From: Neisseria shayeganii 871
Lineage (GTDB): Bacteria; Pseudomonadota; Gammaproteobacteria; Burkholderiales; Neisseriaceae
Length of the DNA stretch: 32,000 nucleotides
NCBI RefSeq assembly: GCF_000226875.1
Contig: NZ_JH164926.1
Location: 2,290,135-2,322,134 of the forward strand
Direction of reading: 5' to 3'
In this document: positions 5,854 to 31,639 of the stretch, one piece after another
How positions within the stretch are numbered: the stretch's first letter is position 1
Layout of the letters: each line of letters begins with the position of its first letter
Position numbers and translations under genes: made by a program
The notes under the pieces: generated by a model
Told to the model about the DNA's origin: nothing
Databases searched by the model: none
The model's input: the letters and a program-made list of their open reading frames with translations, nothing else

Positions 5854-6783
5854 ATGACCGTATTGATTATTGCCGAACACGACAACGCAAAACTCAATCC
5901 CGCCACCCTGCACGCGGTTACTGCGGCGCAAAAATTGGGTGAGGTACATGTATTGGTGGCCGGCAACGGCGCTGCCGCCGTGGCCGACCAGGCCAAGCAG
6001 GTAGCCGGCGTGGCCAAAGTATTGCTGGCGGATGCCGCCCACTATGCCGAAAGTTTGCCGGAAGAAGTGGCACCCTTGGTGGTGAAGCTGGCCGGCGACT
6101 ATAGCCATATCGGCGCCACTGCCACCGCTTTCGGCAAAAACCTGCTGCCGCGTGTGGCCGCGTTATTGGATTGCTCGCAAGTATCCGATTTGACCGAAGT
6201 GGTGGATGCCCAAACTTTTGTCCGCCCCATTTATGCCGGCAATGCGTTCGCTACCGTGAACAGCAGCGAATCCAAACTGGTGCTGACTTTCCGTGCCACT
6301 GCTTTTGATGCGGCGGCTACCGCAGGCGGCAATGCTGCGGTGGAAACCGTAGAAGCGACCGCTCAACAAGGTTTGAGCCGTTTTGTGGGCCGTGAACTGA
6401 CCAAATCCGACCGTCCTGAGCTTACCCAAGCCAAAATCATTGTTTCCGGCGGCCGTGCATTGGCCAATGCCGAGCAATTCAACAGTGTGCTTACCCCCTT
6501 GGCCGACAAATTGGGTGCTGCGATCGGTGCTTCCCGTGCGGCAGTGGATGCCGGCTATGCGCCGAACGATTACCAAGTCGGCCAAACCGGTAAAGTGGTG
6601 GCGCCCGAGCTGTATATTGCCGTGGGCATTTCCGGTGCCATCCAGCACATCGCCGGCATGCAAGACAGCAAAGTGATTGTGGCCATCAATAAAGACCCGG
6701 AAGCGCCGATTTTCAATGTTGCCGATTATGGTTTGGTAGCCGATTTGTTTACTGCGGTGCCTGAATTGGTAGAAGCGCTGTAA
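5854..6783 (+). CDS. etfA: Electron transfer flavoprotein alpha subunit
   Basis: 309 aa, starting 10 nt after etfB. FAD-binding C-terminal block [26 protein letters not shown]. Confidence 0.95.
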
Positions 6784-21706: not shown

Positions 21707-22795
21707 TCAATAACGGGTAACCGCCACCACGCCGTGCTCGGCCTGTTGCGCGGCCAAGCGGCCGTTATCGACAAATTTCACTTGGCCGCCGGCGGCCAGC
21801 ACTTTCTCAATCATCTCGTCCACGATGTCTTCATAAGTGCGCTCGGATGCGGTGAAACCTTCCGGCAACAGCGTGAGTTGGCGGCCGTCTTCGCTGACCT
21901 CGGCAGCCAGGCTGCTGTCTTCTTCCACCACCAGCATTTCCGCCCGGCCGTCGATGGCGGCCTGCCACACCTCGTTGAGGCTGTCGACAAAGCGGTGGTT
22001 GCTCTTGGCCGCTTCCAAATCGGCAAACACTTTTTCGCGCTCCTGGCTCAGGGCTTCTTTCACCTGCGGCCAAATATGCTGTGCCAGCTGATGCTCGCTT
22101 TCTTCGTTGTGGCCGCTGTGGATATACAGCATTACCTCGTCGCTGTTGCGCGCGCCTTCGCGGAAGTGGCCGATGTTGCGGTCCACGCCCACCACCACGA
22201 TGGGGGCGGGAATCTGTTTTTGCGCTTCGGCCAAAGCATCGCCGATTTCACGCATATTGTCGGCCACAATCTGGTCGCGCACATGGCTGATGTCCTGGCT
22301 GGGGCTGGCGCTGGCCACGGTGTTGGCCAGGCTGAAAGGGAAGCCGTAGGCGTGCACTTCGTTGAGCAGGTCTTTGCGGCCGACAAACAGGCGTGAGCCA
22401 TGCTCGCTCAATACGGTGAGCAAATACAGCGGGCTGCGGTTCATGGCATACACCAGATCGCGGGTAACGAAGTTGTCTTCAATGCTCACGCGCTCGGGCA
22501 CGCGGAAGGGCAGCTTGAACGACTCGCTGTATTCGGCGCTGGCAAAAATCACCAAGCCGTCGAGATTGTGCTCATGGTCCACCTCATCGGCCAAACGATG
22601 GATAGCGGCGGCGATATCCGCCGTTTCGCGTTTGCCGAACTCCTCTTCCAAGCGGGCAACCGCTTCGCTCACCAAGTTTTTCAGCCGAATGGGGTCTTTG
22701 TCGTTGTCGGGGGAAGTGCGGTAGGTCGGCAGGGTGATGGTCACACTCGGGTAAGCCTGCTTGCTTTGGATGTCTTTGATGGTGGCCAGATTCAT
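21707..22795 (-). CDS. eRF1-like protein of the bacterial archaeo-eukaryotic release factor (baeRF) type; function unknown
   Basis: 362 aa. The N-terminus (PSVTITLPTYRTSPDNDKDPIRLKNLVSEAVARL) matches, from memory, the ...vSiYlPThr.....qDpIrLKNLl.eA... opening of baeRF-family proteins. The C-terminus ends GVVAVTRY, like the G.aAiLRY end of eRF1/Pelota domain 3. Bracketed by DUS terminators. Confidence 0.6.
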   Translation of the reverse strand: MNLATIKDIQSKQAYPSVTITLPTYRTSPDNDKDPIRLKNLVSEAVARLEEEFGKRETADIAAAIHRLADEVDHEHNLDGLVIFASAEYSESFKLPFRVPERVSIEDNFVTRDLVYAMNRSPLYLLTVLSEHGSRLFVGRKDLLNEVHAYGFPFSLANTVASASPSQDISHVRDQIVADNMREIGDALAEAQKQIPAPIVVVGVDRNIGHFREGARNSDEVMLYIHSGHNEESEHQLAQHIWPQVKEALSQEREKVFADLEAAKSNHRFVDSLNEVWQAAIDGRAEMLVVEEDSSLAAEVSEDGRQLTLLPEGFTASERTYEDIVDEMIEKVLAAGGQVKFVDNGRLAAQQAEHGVVAVTRY

Positions 22796-23014: not shown

Positions 23015-23036
23015 AGGCTACCTGAACACGTTTCAG
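23015..23036. repeat. Interrupted DUS inverted pair (full left half, right half cut after TTCAG)
   Basis: AGGCTACCTGAA-cacgt-TTCAG then ATAATATC... Every other pair in the window continues GTAGCCT at this point. Confidence 0.85.
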
Positions 23037-23193
23037 ATAATATCTTAGCCGGTCAATGTAAAAATTTTGTGATTTATGCAATTTGCTGATTTTTATAGTT
23101 AAATTGTGTTACGCTTTTGCATTGGCAATAGCTTACCCGCCGCTTCCGTATTGATGGAGGCGGTTTTTTTATGGGTGCATGGCGTTGCGCCGC

Positions 23194-24162: not shown

Positions 24163-24361
24163 ATGGAATTTTCCTTATATTCAGCTTTGTAGCTATTGAT
24201 AATATCCAATCTTAATGATTCCGGCGTCCAATCTGAAACCCAGCCTGAAGGCTTGGTGGCTTTACGGACTTGTGCCGGTCTTGCCGCGCAAGGCAAGGTA
24301 GCTGATAGTAGCAAGCAATTGCTGATAATTTAAAGGTTTTTTGGGCGTTCCCTTCGGGCAT

Positions 24362-24466
24362 GGCGGTGCGTTCTCGCCTGCGGTTATTTCAAACGATGGT
24401 TTACGTTTGAAAAACCTCCGACAACCGAACGCATTTTCCGCTGGATACATGCCCTGCGGGGCGGGC
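24362..24466 (+). repeat. Structured ~105-nt repeat, copy R1
   Basis: GGCGG box, a 9-bp stem TTTCAAACG/CGTTTGAAA (24387-24395/24404-24412) with an 8-nt loop, an AAAACCTCCGACAACCG box, and a second CCGC/GCGG hairpin. Confidence 0.75.
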
Positions 24467-24583
24467 TAAAATTCTGTAATTTCTCATGCTTGCAAAAACA
24501 GAACGGAGCCTGGGTCTCCGCCTCTTCAGGTCTATATCCCTAACGCATCTATTCCCACCCCGAGCAGCGGCCGCAGCGGCAAA

Positions 24584-24688
24584 GGCGGCATGCCCTCGCC
24601 TATGGTTATTTCAGGTGATAGTTTGCACCTGAAAAACCTCCGGCAACCGAGCATGATTTCCGCTGGTCTTTACCACTGCGGCCGCCGC
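24584..24688 (+). repeat. Structured ~105-nt repeat, copy R2
   Basis: Same architecture as R1. Stem TTTCAGGTG/CACCTGAAA (24609-24617/24626-24634). A gap-free hand alignment to R1 gives 70/104 identical positions. Confidence 0.75.
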
Positions 24689-24756
24689 TCACCACCCCAT
24701 TTTTTTTTATTTCTACAGGCCGGCAGGCGTTTGTGGGAGCAAGCCGCTACGTTAAT

Positions 24757-24950
24757 TTTTAAAGCATCAGTCCGGCTATCGGGTCTATGGGGCTGGTGCG
24801 ATTGAAGCATCCATAAAAAAGCAGTCAATACGGTATTCATAAAGAAATTCGTTGAATTTCTTTACAAAGCTTCCGTATTGACTGCTTTTTTATTCCTGCT
24901 TTTTCAATCGCGCCCCATACGACTCCGATAGCCGGACTGATGCTTTAAAA
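24757..24950. repeat. 194-nt nested imperfect palindrome (candidate packaging signal / minus-strand origin / bidirectional terminator)
   Basis: Outer arms are TTTTAAAGCATCAGTCCGGCTATCGG...CGATTGAA (24757-24806) and TTCAATCG...CCGATAGCCGGACTGATGCTTTAAAA (24903-24950). Inside is a perfect 19-bp IR, AAAAAAGCAGTCAATACGG (24815-24833) / CCGTATTGACTGCTTTTTT (24873-24891). The innermost IR is AAAGAAATT/AATTTCTTT (24841-24849/24855-24863). Confidence 0.8.
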
Positions 24951-25031
24951 AAAAACTTCGCTAACCGTTTTGCCCCTCCAACCCCTCCTACCGTCCTGAG
25001 GCGGGGAAAACCCAACCTGAAAGGAAAAGAC

Positions 25032-25376
25032 ATGGAAATCATCATCAAAGAAACCAACACCCGTGAAACCTTGTCAATTATTGACCACAAAACAGGCTGC
25101 AACTTTATCGCCGATTTTATTGGAAACACCGGCGCTCTAGATGATGGACAGTTTGAATGGAATGAAGAACAAAATGCCTATATCTGCAACCAAGAAACCT
25201 TCGACTGGTGGGAAAAGGTTATAAGCGACAATCAAGCGCTAGAAAATCGCATCGCCGAATTAATTGAGGAACACGGCTCAGATGCCGTCTATAAAGTCGT
25301 GGCCGATGCCGCCTACGGCGACCTAGAAGACCACGCAGCAATTATAAATTCTGAACTTGATGAAAATTTCAAATAA
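25032..25376 (+). CDS. Hypothetical very acidic small protein (114 aa; 26 D/E vs 7 K/R)
   Basis: ATG 25032 preceded by CCTGAAAGGAAAAGA. Low GC relative to the chromosome. Encoded on the strand opposite to all the phage structural genes. No family recognised. Confidence 0.6.
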   Translation: MEIIIKETNTRETLSIIDHKTGCNFIADFIGNTGALDDGQFEWNEEQNAYICNQETFDWWEKVISDNQALENRIAELIEEHGSDAVYKVVADAAYGDLEDHAAIINSELDENFK

Positions 25377-25398
25377 AAAAGCCCTGAAAGGAAAAGAT

Positions 25399-25665
25399 AT
25401 GAAAATTCTATACTTCTTAAGCCACGATGGAGACAACTATTTCATCACGAAAAGTTACAAAGAAGCAGTAAATTGGCAAGAAAGCCAAGAACTGAATTTT
25501 GCAACGGAGATTTGCTATGATGAAGATTTCAGAATCACACATATAGACCGGAACGAGATAGATTGGTTCGCAGAAAGCATATCCGATGAAATAGGAAGCC
25601 CCCAGTTCCAAGAGGCGAAAGAGATGCTAAACAAAGAATACGAATTCCCCGAAGAATTGAAGTAA
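25399..25665 (+). CDS. Hypothetical very acidic small protein (88 aa; 21 D/E vs 8 K/R)
   Basis: The internal ATG 25399 is preceded by the same CCTGAAAGGAAAAGA box as the upstream ORF. Followed by an intrinsic terminator at 25669-25690. No family recognised. Confidence 0.55.
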   Translation: MKILYFLSHDGDNYFITKSYKEAVNWQESQELNFATEICYDEDFRITHIDRNEIDWFAESISDEIGSPQFQEAKEMLNKEYEFPEELK

Positions 25666-25668
25666 CAC

Positions 25669-25690
25669 AGCCCCGGAAGGGGCTTTTCTT
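25669..25690 (+). terminator. Intrinsic terminator after the second acidic ORF
   Basis: AGCCCC-ggaa-GGGGCT followed by TTTCTT, 4 nt after the stop codon. Confidence 0.7.
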
Positions 25691-25742
25691 ATGAACCGTT
25701 ACCGTGACGGTAGCGGTTACCCACCCTGCCACACTCAAAAAA

Positions 25743-25846
25743 GGCGGAAGCCCTCGACTGCGGTTCTTTCAAGTGATGGCAGGCACTTGAAAAACCTTCG
25801 CCAACCGGACTTGTTCCGCATGGTCTTTTTCGAATGCGGCTTCCCA
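25743..25846 (+). repeat. Structured ~105-nt repeat, copy R3
   Basis: Same architecture as R1. Stem TTTCAAGTG/CACTTGAAA (25767-25775/25784-25792), with box AAAACCTTCGCCAACCG. Confidence 0.75.
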
Positions 25847-25924
25847 CCCGATATTATTTCTTTCTTAAATAACGAAAAATTTCACTAATAATCTGGGAGA
25901 TAATACGACGGATGATGTAGTTTT

Positions 25925-26986
25925 TCATGATTCGGGAGCCTTAATTGGCGTTACAGCCTGTCGTTCAGGCTCTTTGTAGGGATTGAACGGCAGGCCGTTT
26001 TCGGTATAGCTGATGCATAATTCGGTACTGATTTCGGCCAATTGCGTGCCTTGATCGCTGTAGCAGTTGCAGGAACTGCCGGAGGCGATGCAGCCGGCGA
26101 CGCGCTCGAAGGTGCGGACCTGGCGGACATTATTGTAAATAGGCTTGGATTCGGGCTTTTCGGCCAGCGTAGGGACGAAATCAGCAGGGCTTAGATTTTG
26201 GCTTTGTGCGGCGGTAAAGCCTTCCTGAGCCGTAGGCACATTGCCGCCATAGGCGGCTGTGGCCAGCGGCTCAGAAGCAGATTCAGCCACTGCTGCCGCT
26301 TCGCTGCCGCCGGTGGCGCCGGAATATGCGCCGTAGACGCCCCAAGCTTTCCAGCCGATGAAGGCGAGTATGGCGGCAAATGCCCAAACGACCAACGGCA
26401 CACGTTTTTTGAATTTTTGATGTTTGCTGGCTGATTTGTAGTATTTGAATGCTGCCTTTGGCGGCTTCCAAGATGCGGATTCCGTGCCGGACAGGCCGGC
26501 AGGATTATCAAGCGTGGTAACGCATTTGTACCACCAATACTGCTTCATGCCGACGGATTTTCGCTCAAGATGGATATGCTTTGAAACCAAATTACGCACG
26601 AATATATCCAATTGACTTGGATGCTGTGTCATGAGGATTAAGGTGAATCCGTCATGCCGCAGTTCGGAAAGTTTCTGCACATAGGGCGGCACGGCTTTGG
26701 CGGCGGAGCGAACGGGATACGTCCAATGCGCTTCATCAACAATTAAAACGGCACCGGTCGGCAGAATTTCATCCAGCGGGGCGGACTGAATTTCTTCCTT
26801 AGTCAATTCGTGGGCATGGAATTTGGCGGCATCCAAGCCGTCTATATGGCAGAAATATAAGGGGCGGTCTATTGGCGTGCCGTCTTCCGCGGTGGTTTTA
26901 AATAGGCCGTCTTCATTGGTCAGAATCATATTGACAGCACGACTGGTTTTGCCGGTGCCCATATTGCCGGTTATCAGGTAAATCAT
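25925..26986 (-). CDS. Zot-like / pI-type inovirus assembly ATPase
   Basis: 353 aa. N-terminal Walker A (ITGNMGTGKTS), Walker B-like LIVDEAH, and a central TM (VPLVVWAFAAILAFIGWKAWGVYG), which together give the Zot/pI architecture. Sits directly after the pVI-like gene. Confidence 0.85.
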   Translation of the reverse strand: MIYLITGNMGTGKTSRAVNMILTNEDGLFKTTAEDGTPIDRPLYFCHIDGLDAAKFHAHELTKEEIQSAPLDEILPTGAVLIVDEAHWTYPVRSAAKAVPPYVQKLSELRHDGFTLILMTQHPSQLDIFVRNLVSKHIHLERKSVGMKQYWWYKCVTTLDNPAGLSGTESASWKPPKAAFKYYKSASKHQKFKKRVPLVVWAFAAILAFIGWKAWGVYGAYSGATGGSEAAAVAESASEPLATAAYGGNVPTAQEGFTAAQSQNLSPADFVPTLAEKPESKPIYNNVRQVRTFERVAGCIASGSSCNCYSDQGTQLAEISTELCISYTENGLPFNPYKEPERQAVTPIKAPES

Positions 26987-29876: not shown

Positions 29877-30200
29877 TCAGCCTTTCTTTTGTCCTTCCGG
29901 TACACGGAAATCTTTAATCACGACGGTTTCTTTACCGCTGCCGTTGGTGACGCGGGCAAGCTGGATTTCCAACTCGCAAGGGAAAACCAAGCCGCGGAAG
30001 CGTTCGAAATTGCTGCTGTCGCCGAAACGGACTTTGGCGAGACCCAAGCCGAGGGCGTTGCCGGAAGCGTCATTGAACGGTGCGGCTTTGAAAACGGTGC
30101 AACTGTCGATGATGTTGCCTTCGATTTCGCCCTTAAATTTGGTTACGCCCATGACAATGGCGCGTTCGAATACGGGCTGTTGGAGCATGTCAAAATTCAT
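29877..30200 (-). CDS. Candidate ssDNA-binding protein (pV-like, by position and size)
   Basis: 107 aa. Its start overlaps the Rep stop (ATGA-type overlap at 30197-30200). This is the same position and size as gene V/ORF2 in Ff- and Nf-type inoviruses. No motif-level confirmation. Confidence 0.45.
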   Translation of the reverse strand: MNFDMLQQPVFERAIVMGVTKFKGEIEGNIIDSCTVFKAAPFNDASGNALGLGLAKVRFGDSSNFERFRGLVFPCELEIQLARVTNGSGKETVVIKDFRVPEGQKKG

Positions 30201-31639
30201 GATGGATTCCTTTCTAGAGAGACAATTTCAGGTTCTGGGATATAGGTGGGATACTCTTGTTTCCGAATCAGCGATTCGGCAATATGGCCGGCCTGCTGAA
30301 GGCGTTTGCGAGCTTCGATTTCTTCATACAGTGCATGGCATTCAGCATCGGTGGGCATGTATTCATCAATCGTCATGCGGAATTCGTCCAAATCGAAGGG
30401 CGCAAAACCGTCATGGTGCAAATAGTGAACCCTGATGGCATCGCAGTTATATTCGGACGGATCCAGCCCTTTCGGGTATTTGCCTTCATCGGCCACCAGA
30501 CGGCGGACGATTTCCGAATCGGGGAAACCGGCATCCACGAGAAAACGGACAAAGCGGCCGACTTGGTTTCTGGCATGGAATTCCCGCTGTTCGAAAGTGA
30601 GGTTCACCACATTGGCTTTAGTTTCAATACGATTGGCCGCTACCTGAAACAGTTCTTCACCGATCGGGAAAGCACCCGTCAAATACTGACCCGGCTTAAT
30701 CAAAATATCGTGCGGTATCACACAATCATGTTTGCGGAACTCGACTTCGAAGCGAACCCACGGGCTGGACTTGTCGCCGAACTTTTTGCCTTTCTCGTAA
30801 ATGCGCGCTAGCTTGGACGAGCCTTTGCGACCGATGTAAAGCGTTTTGCCGGAACCATCTTCAATATTCCAGGCAGTGCCGCGGCATTCGGCTTTAGGTG
30901 TAACGTTATGGTTGTCGTAACGGCCTTTTTTGTGATCAACCAAAGCCTGATCAGGCGTGTATTCGCCGTTGAAAAAATCATGGGCCACATCGCAACGGGT
31001 AATGCGCGGTTTGATCGCCTGTTGCAGGAACTCATACAAACGGCCTTCCCAACCGGGCAGGGCGGCTTGGCAGCCGACGGCATTTAAATCAATCAATACG
31101 GTGTTACGTTGACCGCCGTGATGAAGCGTGCCGTATGCCGCGTTATCGGGGCCGATTTGGTAATAAGCCTGATAGAAGAACTTGCCTTTACCAAGCATTT
31201 TTTTGGTAATGCCGAAACCGAAGATTTTTTCGAGTGATTCGCTACAGGCGGAAATAAAATCGTTTTGGCCGACCAGACGGTTTTGCAGGTAGTGAAAAAT
31301 GGTGTCTTCGTGAAAAGTGAAGGTGAGGTAGTCAATCAGCGCACCGTCTTCACGGCCTTTACGCAAGGGAATTTCAAGAAGGTTGCCTTTGGCGTCGGTA
31401 ACGTAGGTTTGGAAATATTCGGTGGTTTGAATATTGGCCCAGTCGATTTGCTCCCCCGCTGAAGGTTTTTGGGTTTCTTGCTCCCCCCCTGTTAGCCTAG
31501 GGGGGGCATCTGCCGCCGCTGCCGCGTCAGCCGCCGCTAAGCGGCTGTCTGCCGCGTCATCTGGCGGCAGATACTTTGATGCGGCAATGACAACATCAAT
31601 TTCGGCGGCATCCGGTAAGGTGTTTCTTGTGCGAGACAT
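30197..31639 (-). CDS. Rolling-circle replication initiator (RstA / Rep_trans-like)
   Basis: 480 aa. Has RCDVAHDF, YIGRKGSSKLARIYEKGKKFG and WVRFEVEFRK blocks typical of the replication-initiation-factor family used by CTX/Nf-type inoviruses. The N-terminal ~60 aa are low-complexity and Ala/Asp-rich. Confidence 0.75.
   Translation of the reverse strand: MSRTRNTLPDAAEIDVVIAASKYLPPDDAADSRLAAADAAAAADAPPRLTGGEQETQKPSAGEQIDWANIQTTEYFQTYVTDAKGNLLEIPLRKGREDGALIDYLTFTFHEDTIFHYLQNRLVGQNDFISACSESLEKIFGFGITKKMLGKGKFFYQAYYQIGPDNAAYGTLHHGGQRNTVLIDLNAVGCQAALPGWEGRLYEFLQQAIKPRITRCDVAHDFFNGEYTPDQALVDHKKGRYDNHNVTPKAECRGTAWNIEDGSGKTLYIGRKGSSKLARIYEKGKKFGDKSSPWVRFEVEFRKHDCVIPHDILIKPGQYLTGAFPIGEELFQVAANRIETKANVVNLTFEQREFHARNQVGRFVRFLVDAGFPDSEIVRRLVADEGKYPKGLDPSEYNCDAIRVHYLHHDGFAPFDLDEFRMTIDEYMPTDAECHALYEEIEARKRLQQAGHIAESLIRKQEYPTYIPEPEIVSLERNPS

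Follow-up and report, generated by a model that had tools for sequence, protein, structure and literature searches.

The window analysed here, a 32,000-nucleotide stretch of the Neisseria shayeganii 871 contig NZ_JH164926.1, contains an inovirus prophage whose non-coding region carries three related hairpin modules, termed R1, R2 and R3, which are the subject of this study. An earlier interpretation made from the letters of the DNA alone (the sequence-only reading) had recognised an inovirus, in agreement with Pfam, which gave an Nf/MDA-type prophage on the minus strand. The Nf/MDA-type group includes a meningococcal virulence-associated phage and, to our knowledge, nothing has been established about the cis-acting replication or packaging signals of its members. 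Core genes for Rep_trans, coat B, TspB, DUF2523 and Zot were identified by Pfam on the minus strand between 25925 and 31639, with Rep_trans (PF02486) at 30197-31639 and Zot at 25925-26986. The phage integrase is an IS110-family DEDD recombinase (PF01548 and PF02371; 23194-24162, minus strand), the protein being 100% identical to one from Neisseria shayeganii, and its gene is preceded by a leader (24163-24335, minus strand) that is conserved in all Nf-type loci, is separate from the modules and represents a candidate bridge RNA. A 215-nt palindrome (24746-24961; inverted repeats I1 and I2) is located between R2 and two small listed open reading frames (ORFs) on the plus strand (25032-25376 and 25399-25665), which run antisense to the phage operon between R2 and R3, have no Pfam match and were called as genes in an independent assembly of the phage (L018).

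The three modules were located as direct copies, as the sequence-only reading had described, and were aligned as repeat units, each about 100 nt long, at 24359-24466, 24581-24688 and 25739-25846, with a pairwise identity of 73-75%. The hand count given earlier for R1 against R2 (70/104) was close to the measured value of 73-74%. Within these units, repeat family D1 spans 24359-24427, 24581-24649 and 25739-25807, and a 20-nt box, TGAAAAACCTYCGNCAACCG, occurs three times against 0.02 occurrences expected. On the minus strand, the R1 hairpin extends over 24356-24454 (about 99 nt; covariance-model core 24360-24445), that of R2 over 24562-24690 (about 129 nt; core 24582-24667, enclosed by a 23-bp G+C-rich outer stem) and that of R3 over 25742-25849 (about 108 nt; core 25740-25824), the last being situated 76 nt downstream of the zot stop codon. 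R3 is directly followed by a run of six T residues (25737-25742, minus strand), giving, as read from the sequence, the shape of an intrinsic terminator for the zot operon. Upstream of R1 lies an intergenic block (24455-24561, minus strand) consisting of GGGGTGGGAATAGATGCGTTAGGGATAT, a small hairpin at 24502-24522 and ACAGAATTTTAGCCCGCCCCGC, which is conserved in the related phage loci L107 and L186-L189.

Conservation of the fold was assessed in a 12-copy alignment (A7) comprising the three window copies and nine from related phages. In this alignment, which was fitted to a covariance model, a procedure that favours structure, 97.4% of 342 cells were paired compared to 81.5% in shuffles, 15 of the 29 pairs had changed on both sides, and the covariation score was 0.493, falling to 0.109 or less when partners were slid by 1-3 columns. 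The same helices were recovered by RNAalifold from a MAFFT alignment of the five closest copies, with 16 of 40 pairs being compensatory. The central stem pairs of the window copies differ by double substitutions (AAACG/CGTTT, AGGTG/CACCT and AAGTG/CACTT), and the apical stem alone is found in at least five different paired states. Selection therefore acts on a folded single strand, and the fold is kept by compensatory substitutions in every copy; the claim of selection on a folded nucleic acid, originally built on three copies, thus held up with the addition of nine more. Individually, R1 scored 100-106 bits with the covariance models and had a DNA folding z-score of -5.9, R2 reached -85.6 kcal/mol when folded as RNA (z-score -9.8), and R3 scored 83 bits.

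The predicted 9-bp stem with its 8-nt loop was present in the modules. The remainder of the proposed architecture, a 'GGCGG box' followed by a separate second CCGC hairpin, had to be revised, as these two elements are in fact opposite sides of one closing helix, and each module is therefore a single long imperfect hairpin. A local CCGC...GCGG hairpin was seen only in the minimum-energy fold of R3 and is absent from the copies in L186-L189. The whole module is closed by outer stems that differ among copies, with the interior being the most conserved part and the termini the least. Conserved features of the interior include the sequence AGRUUUUUCA/UGAAAGAAYC, internal loops of 2-3 nt and an invariant U·G pair (alignment columns 23/72), while the terminal loops in A7 read YAAACMAT, CCTGCCAT or CAGACCRT.

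The pairing also reveals which strand is folded. Of the cells of the 12 copies, 314 were Watson-Crick and 19 were G·U, with A·C cells being absent, which identifies the minus strand of the window, the same sense as the phage genes, as the sense strand of the module. The sequence-only reading had taken the plus strand, which folds less well: RNA folding z-scores for R1, R2 and R3 were -4.3, -9.8 and -2.8 on the minus strand compared to -1.4, -6.7 and -2.0 on the plus strand, and R2 folded with DNA parameters gave -46.8 versus -38.8 kcal/mol. The sense strand folded better in 11 of the 12 copies and coincided with the gene strand in all of them. MDA phage, a relative of Nf1, is secreted as positive-strand single-stranded DNA (ssDNA) (PMC2212043); with the identity of packaged and coding strand carried over from MDA, the hairpins would therefore be on the strand that is packaged and that also has the sense of the mRNA. 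The module thus resembles a packaged-strand inovirus signal in its non-coding position, its folding on the packaged strand and its fixed orientation. It constitutes a defined, covariation-supported candidate of about 86-130 nt whose active strand is known, and is amenable to deletion, transplantation and in vitro assay.

The modules are non-coding, as had been supposed. A conserved ORF was considered as the alternative explanation for their conservation, but variable columns were evenly spread over codon positions 1, 2 and 3 (19/28, 16/29 and 17/29), some indels among copies were not multiples of three, the ORFs of the modules had no common start codon, and no module frame had a Pfam match. 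An antisense frame (..S.D.L.LKNLR..) that is open in all 12 cores was likewise rejected as coding. The earlier statement that the element belongs to no named RNA family was borne out by Rfam 15, in which no match reached the gathering threshold and where only spurious miRNA-like and weak matches appeared at E-values up to 10. No match to the 1.76-kb non-coding region was obtained by blastn against the INPHARED phages. A strict 20-mer scan of IMG/VR returned no match, and the same strict 20-mer scan of 185,579 species genomes gave none in Neisseriaceae and 17 single matches in unrelated metagenome-assembled genomes, where about 9 were expected by chance. The modules make up a lineage-restricted, previously undescribed family of structured hairpins in inoviruses of the Neisseriaceae. 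Scanning the region with a sigma-70 consensus found nothing beyond chance. A promoter within the hairpin (TTGNCG-17-AACMAT) was also considered and rejected, as it faces the loop and no -10 element could be read by eye on the outward-facing arm.

To establish the distribution of the module, 160 Nf-type loci were collected by means of the IS110 protein and two covariance models were built. A single-protein search of viral contigs gave no matches, whereas an alignment-based search did yield loci; exact-protein look-ups returned only the same locus and a look-up with the Rep protein gave nothing, so that the left end of the prophage, and with it attL and attP, did not emerge from them. Among the 160 loci, the module was detected only in the window, in L022 and L023, in L107 (two copies) and in L105 (one copy). 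L022 and L023, with IS110 proteins 87% identical to that of the window, carry orthologues of R1 and R2. According to the covariance models, the module is absent from L020, L021, L024, L104, L106 and about 150 other Nf-type loci, and these five and other module-less loci all retain the large palindrome. A relaxed pattern scan of IMG/VR added four contigs, L186-L189, scoring 80-83 bits, and all module matches in that database were to inovirus contigs. The Zot proteins of L186-L189 are about 48% identical to that of the window, no IS110 gene could be detected in these contigs by tblastn, and their single module lies 400-500 nt downstream of zot in the same sense. The initiators differ also, since L189 encodes a PF23343 Rep in place of the PF02486 Rep of the window, with no tblastn match between the two. 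In every copy the module is non-coding, in the sense of zot and downstream of it.

The order GGGTGGTTGGGTGGGATTAGAAGCGTTAGGGATAT ... ACAGAATTTTAGCCCGACCCGCC, module, GGGGAACGCCC in L186-L189 is orthologous to the flanks of R1 in the window and of copy 1 in L107. Comparison of the window with L189 gave a nucleotide identity of 75% for the block that contains R1 and of 66% for zot, and the position of R1 is stable across phages whose Zot proteins are only 48% identical. Because of these orthologous flanks, R1 is the ancestral copy. R2, on the other hand, behaves as a 131-nt insertion or deletion unit: its site is filled in L023 and empty in L020, L107 and L186-L189, where GGGTGGT is joined directly to TGGGTGGGA, and comparison of filled and empty sites shows no target duplication. 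The motif GGGTGG(G/T) beside several copies was considered as a possible duplication and rejected, as the empty site already contains both motifs. The site of the second L107 copy is empty in the window. R2, R3 and L107 copy 2 are lineage-specific paralogues.

The intergenic block is common to phages that use IS110 and to phages that use a dif-like site, a finding useful for dissecting prophage replication, packaging and integration. About 90 nt beyond the module in L186-L189 (for example, at approximately 6290-6310 on the reverse strand of L189) is the sequence ACATTATGCGAACT, which we take to be the reverse complement of the XerC arm of Neisseria dif, and the contigs diverge immediately after it. 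This arrangement suggests that a XerCD-type integration module was swapped for an IS110 module around the same intergenic block. The metagenome contig L105 (1-1640), which may be a deleted or rearranged prophage, is organised differently from L107: a Rep-like coding region leads straight into the module's 5' flank (..GCAAGCCCCTTATGGGTGGGAAAAAAG..).

The module accompanies a PF02486 Rep and IS110 in one set of phages, and a PF23343 Rep with a dif-like arm and no IS110 in another. It is thus independent of IS110 and of the Rep family, and this independence from the replication and integration modules leaves roles that depend on the host or on morphogenesis. By elimination, the module is tentatively proposed to be a minus-strand origin, a single-strand initiation signal that is read by the host. 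It would act in cis as a folded single strand of the coding, packaged (+) strand. It forms part of a conserved block downstream of zot in one Neisseriaceae Nf-like clade, normally as a single copy at the position of R1. In the N. shayeganii phage lineage it was copied twice more, giving R2 and R3, with all copies retaining the fold. On incoming or newly made ssDNA the hairpin may recruit the host priming machinery, and we infer both this priming activity and action as ssDNA rather than as RNA; additional copies would do no harm or would be of benefit. R3, with its T6 run and its location between convergent genes, is probably also the terminator of zot transcription.

Several properties of the module fit this proposal. 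Minus-strand origins of the single-strand origin (sso) type are interchangeable between replicons, and the patchy distribution and triplication of the module match signals that are exchangeable, dispensable and harmless when duplicated. A module that is dispensable or redundant fits this class of origin, and multiplication should be tolerable for a priming site, although in the case of a plus-strand origin it would break up the genome. The single-strand origins ssoA and ssoU and the ssDNA promoter Frpo of the F plasmid are likewise strand-specific structured cassettes of about 100-200 nt in which fold is conserved over sequence. Such cassettes are read by the host, dispensable, sometimes duplicated and common to replicons with different Reps, much as is supposed here for the module.

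A number of observations weigh against a minus-strand origin, however. G·U pairs, the invariant U·G among them, are more usual in RNA hairpins than in those of DNA. The module differs from ssoA and Frpo in that the loops in A7 do not contain the CS-6 motif (TAGCGT) of ssoA and the arms, read by eye, hold no convincing outward-facing -35/-10 pair. The sigma-70 scan returned nothing above chance. Close relatives of the phage also manage without the module, and R3 stands exactly where a terminator would be expected, so that a role in RNA is equally natural at that position. A bolder form of the proposal would make the module a portable ssDNA cassette of Neisseriaceae inoviruses that is read by the host, acts as a single-strand origin or ssDNA promoter, moves between phages with unrelated replication and integration modules and multiplies within a genome; this form is considered improbable. 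Were it correct, R1 and R2 could start antisense transcription or priming towards the plus-strand ORFs from incoming ssDNA, before a double-stranded template exists.

The strongest competitor to a minus-strand origin, doubtful but deserving serious consideration, is an RNA element on sense transcripts, be it a terminator, a 3'-end stabiliser, an RNase III site or a small structured RNA. On this account R3 would close the zot operon, with R1 and R2 serving to insulate or process the leader that belongs to the integrase and bridge-RNA region. The sense strand is also that of the mRNA, the fold has frequent G·U pairs, one of them invariant, and RNA folding z-scores reach -9.8. R3 is furthermore followed by U6 between convergent genes, and the single copy of L189 is also found between convergent genes. 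There is no U-run, however, at R1, at R2 or at the copies of L186-L189, the sigma-70 scan offered no promoter for a separate small RNA, and no Rfam family was matched. The conservation of AGRUUUUUCA/UGAAAGAAYC also exceeds what a terminator needs. A consensus scan did not flag R3 as a terminator on account of its long loop-and-stem layout.

An unlikely alternative is a packaging (morphogenetic) signal, which assembly proteins would recognise and which would label the leading end of the filament during extrusion. The comparison is with the Ff phages (f1/M13), where hairpin A serves packaging and hairpins B and C form the minus-strand origin, and which likewise carry long imperfect hairpins in a non-coding region after the morphogenesis genes. 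The Ff hairpins work in one orientation only and require the packaged (+) strand, similar to the strand and orientation of the module, which is found directly downstream of the last morphogenesis gene. It is also inherited along with zot, the identities being 75% (block) and 66% (zot, nucleotide) for L189 against the window. The Ff hairpins are not similar to it in sequence, however, and the module is missing from many related phages and triplicated here. A packaging signal is essential by nature, yet L020, L024, L104, L106 and about 150 further Nf-type loci lack the module, and three signals in one genome would have no obvious use. The 215-nt palindrome is the more widely conserved candidate, being found in Nf-type phages without modules (L020 and L021) as well as in L107; because it is conserved even where the module is absent, it is the better candidate for an essential signal. 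The palindrome core reads GAAGCTTTGTAAAG...CTTTATGAATAC, with a shorter form in L186-L189, and a partial copy of one arm (CATAAAAAA..CAATACGGAAGC) is present just after the IS110 stop codon at 23140-23175.

The variable copy number (0 to 3), the differences in position between close relatives (at the R2 site and at that of L107 copy 2) and the insertion or deletion of a whole 131-nt hairpin at the R2 site would also be expected of a selfish hairpin repeat resembling MITEs (transposable elements of the miniature inverted-repeat type) or ERIC sequences. Such a repeat might multiply within the intergenic DNA of inoviruses, for example, by template switching during rolling-circle replication, the fold being retained only for its own copying. 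Correia, ERIC and NIME/dRS3 repeats are similarly imperfect intergenic palindromes of about 100-130 nt with variable copy number, and dRS3 shares with the module an apical inverted repeat with an 8-nt spacer. Unlike these repeats, the module has neither conserved termini nor target duplication and does not occur scattered through host genomes, and it bears no sequence relation to the dRS3 motif ATTCCC-N8-GGGAAT. Its outer stems are the least conserved part and its interior the most, the reverse of a MITE, no target-site duplication accompanies R2, and matches were confined to inovirus contigs in IMG/VR, with none in Neisseriaceae by the strict 20-mer scan of species genomes. As its ends vary, its interior is conserved and it is neither duplicating its target nor dispersed, the module is not a MITE; and the stability of the R1 position across phages with a 48%-identical Zot makes a selfish repeat of any kind rather improbable.

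The sequence-only reading had also suggested a site of nicking or termination by Rep, that is, a plus-strand origin, with same-sense copies releasing sub-genomic ssDNA circles. The modules are indeed direct repeats on the strand that Rep would nick, and in assemblies of the same phage there is a break at the 5' edge of R3 that might stem from a variant junction. The same assemblies, however, also break at a G7/C7 hairpin in rep, and both breaks may be coverage artefacts. The module is moreover absent from most phages with a Rep_trans protein and IS110, and three active origins would fragment the genome. As two unrelated initiator families, PF02486 and PF23343, accompany the module, it is not a Rep-specific origin, and the probability of such a role is judged to be very low.

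The remaining proposal concerned the IS110 recombinase, for which a more suitable candidate guide was found in the leader of its gene. An 8-mer of this leader (ATATTATC in the window and ATGGTATC in L021) recurs at the extreme right end of the element (23030-23060, minus strand), and five other variants (GTAGTATC, GTAGCATC, ATATCATC, CTATCATC and ATACTATC) recur likewise, amounting to 78 of 78 loci tested. A recurring 8-mer is what the donor guide of a bridge RNA predicts (PMC11208160), and the match between leader and right end looks like guide-donor covariation of a phage bridge RNA. The module does resemble IS110 bridge RNAs and IS1111 seekRNAs (PMC11208160) in that it is structured, does not code for protein and precedes an IS110-family recombinase gene with which it shares its sense; it differs in occurring without IS110 and in having no guide loops, and the adjacent segment at 24163-24335 is the candidate bridge RNA, so that the comparison cleanly separates the module from the candidate bridge RNA of the integrase. 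A guide or recognition function of the module for the IS110 recombinase, as a bridge RNA loop or attachment-site mimic, is therefore scarcely credible, despite the location of R1 and R2 upstream of the IS110 gene in the same sense and the 7 nt that the R2 apical stem shares with the DNA uptake sequence (DUS) adjoining the phage insertion, as L186-L189 carry the module without IS110, about 155 IS110-bearing Nf loci have no module, the segment covarying with the right end lies at 24163-24335, and the bases supposed to be guides are partners of one another in the stem and differ freely from copy to copy. Taken as a whole, the structural argument of the sequence-only reading was upheld, whereas its strand, its architecture and two of its three proposed roles were not.

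The right non-coding end of the prophage (23030-23193, minus strand) terminates in ...TATCTGAAAC at 23030, where homology among loci stops, and adjoins the last host copy of the DUS at 23015-23026. The same junction of ...TATCTGAAAC with the AG-eikDUS AGGCTACCTGAA was seen in L020, L022, L105 and L106. The insertion site of this sub-clade thus seems to lie next to a DUS, probably in inverted DUS pairs, and not in dRS3. The window contains 24 matches to AGGCTACCTGAA with at most one mismatch, none of which lies inside a module; the overlap of the R2 stem with the DUS noted earlier is real over 7 nt (ACCTGAA/TTCAGGT) and falls short of the full 12-mer. A -35-like TTGACC is located about 20 nt from the right end of the prophage, as in IS110 junction promoters.

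The first host gene past the prophage (21707-22795, minus strand) encodes a bacterial eRF1-like protein (baeRF family 3, PF18845). Independent Logan assemblies of the phage (L018, L184 and L019) break at window positions 31455, the G7/C7 hairpin in rep, and 25850, the 5' edge of R3. The breaks at R3 were considered as evidence of a sub-genomic circle and rejected, as the companion break at the G7/C7 hairpin points to a probable assembly artefact. The Logan contigs overlap by 30 nt, and the breaks may reflect a coverage artefact or a variant junction.

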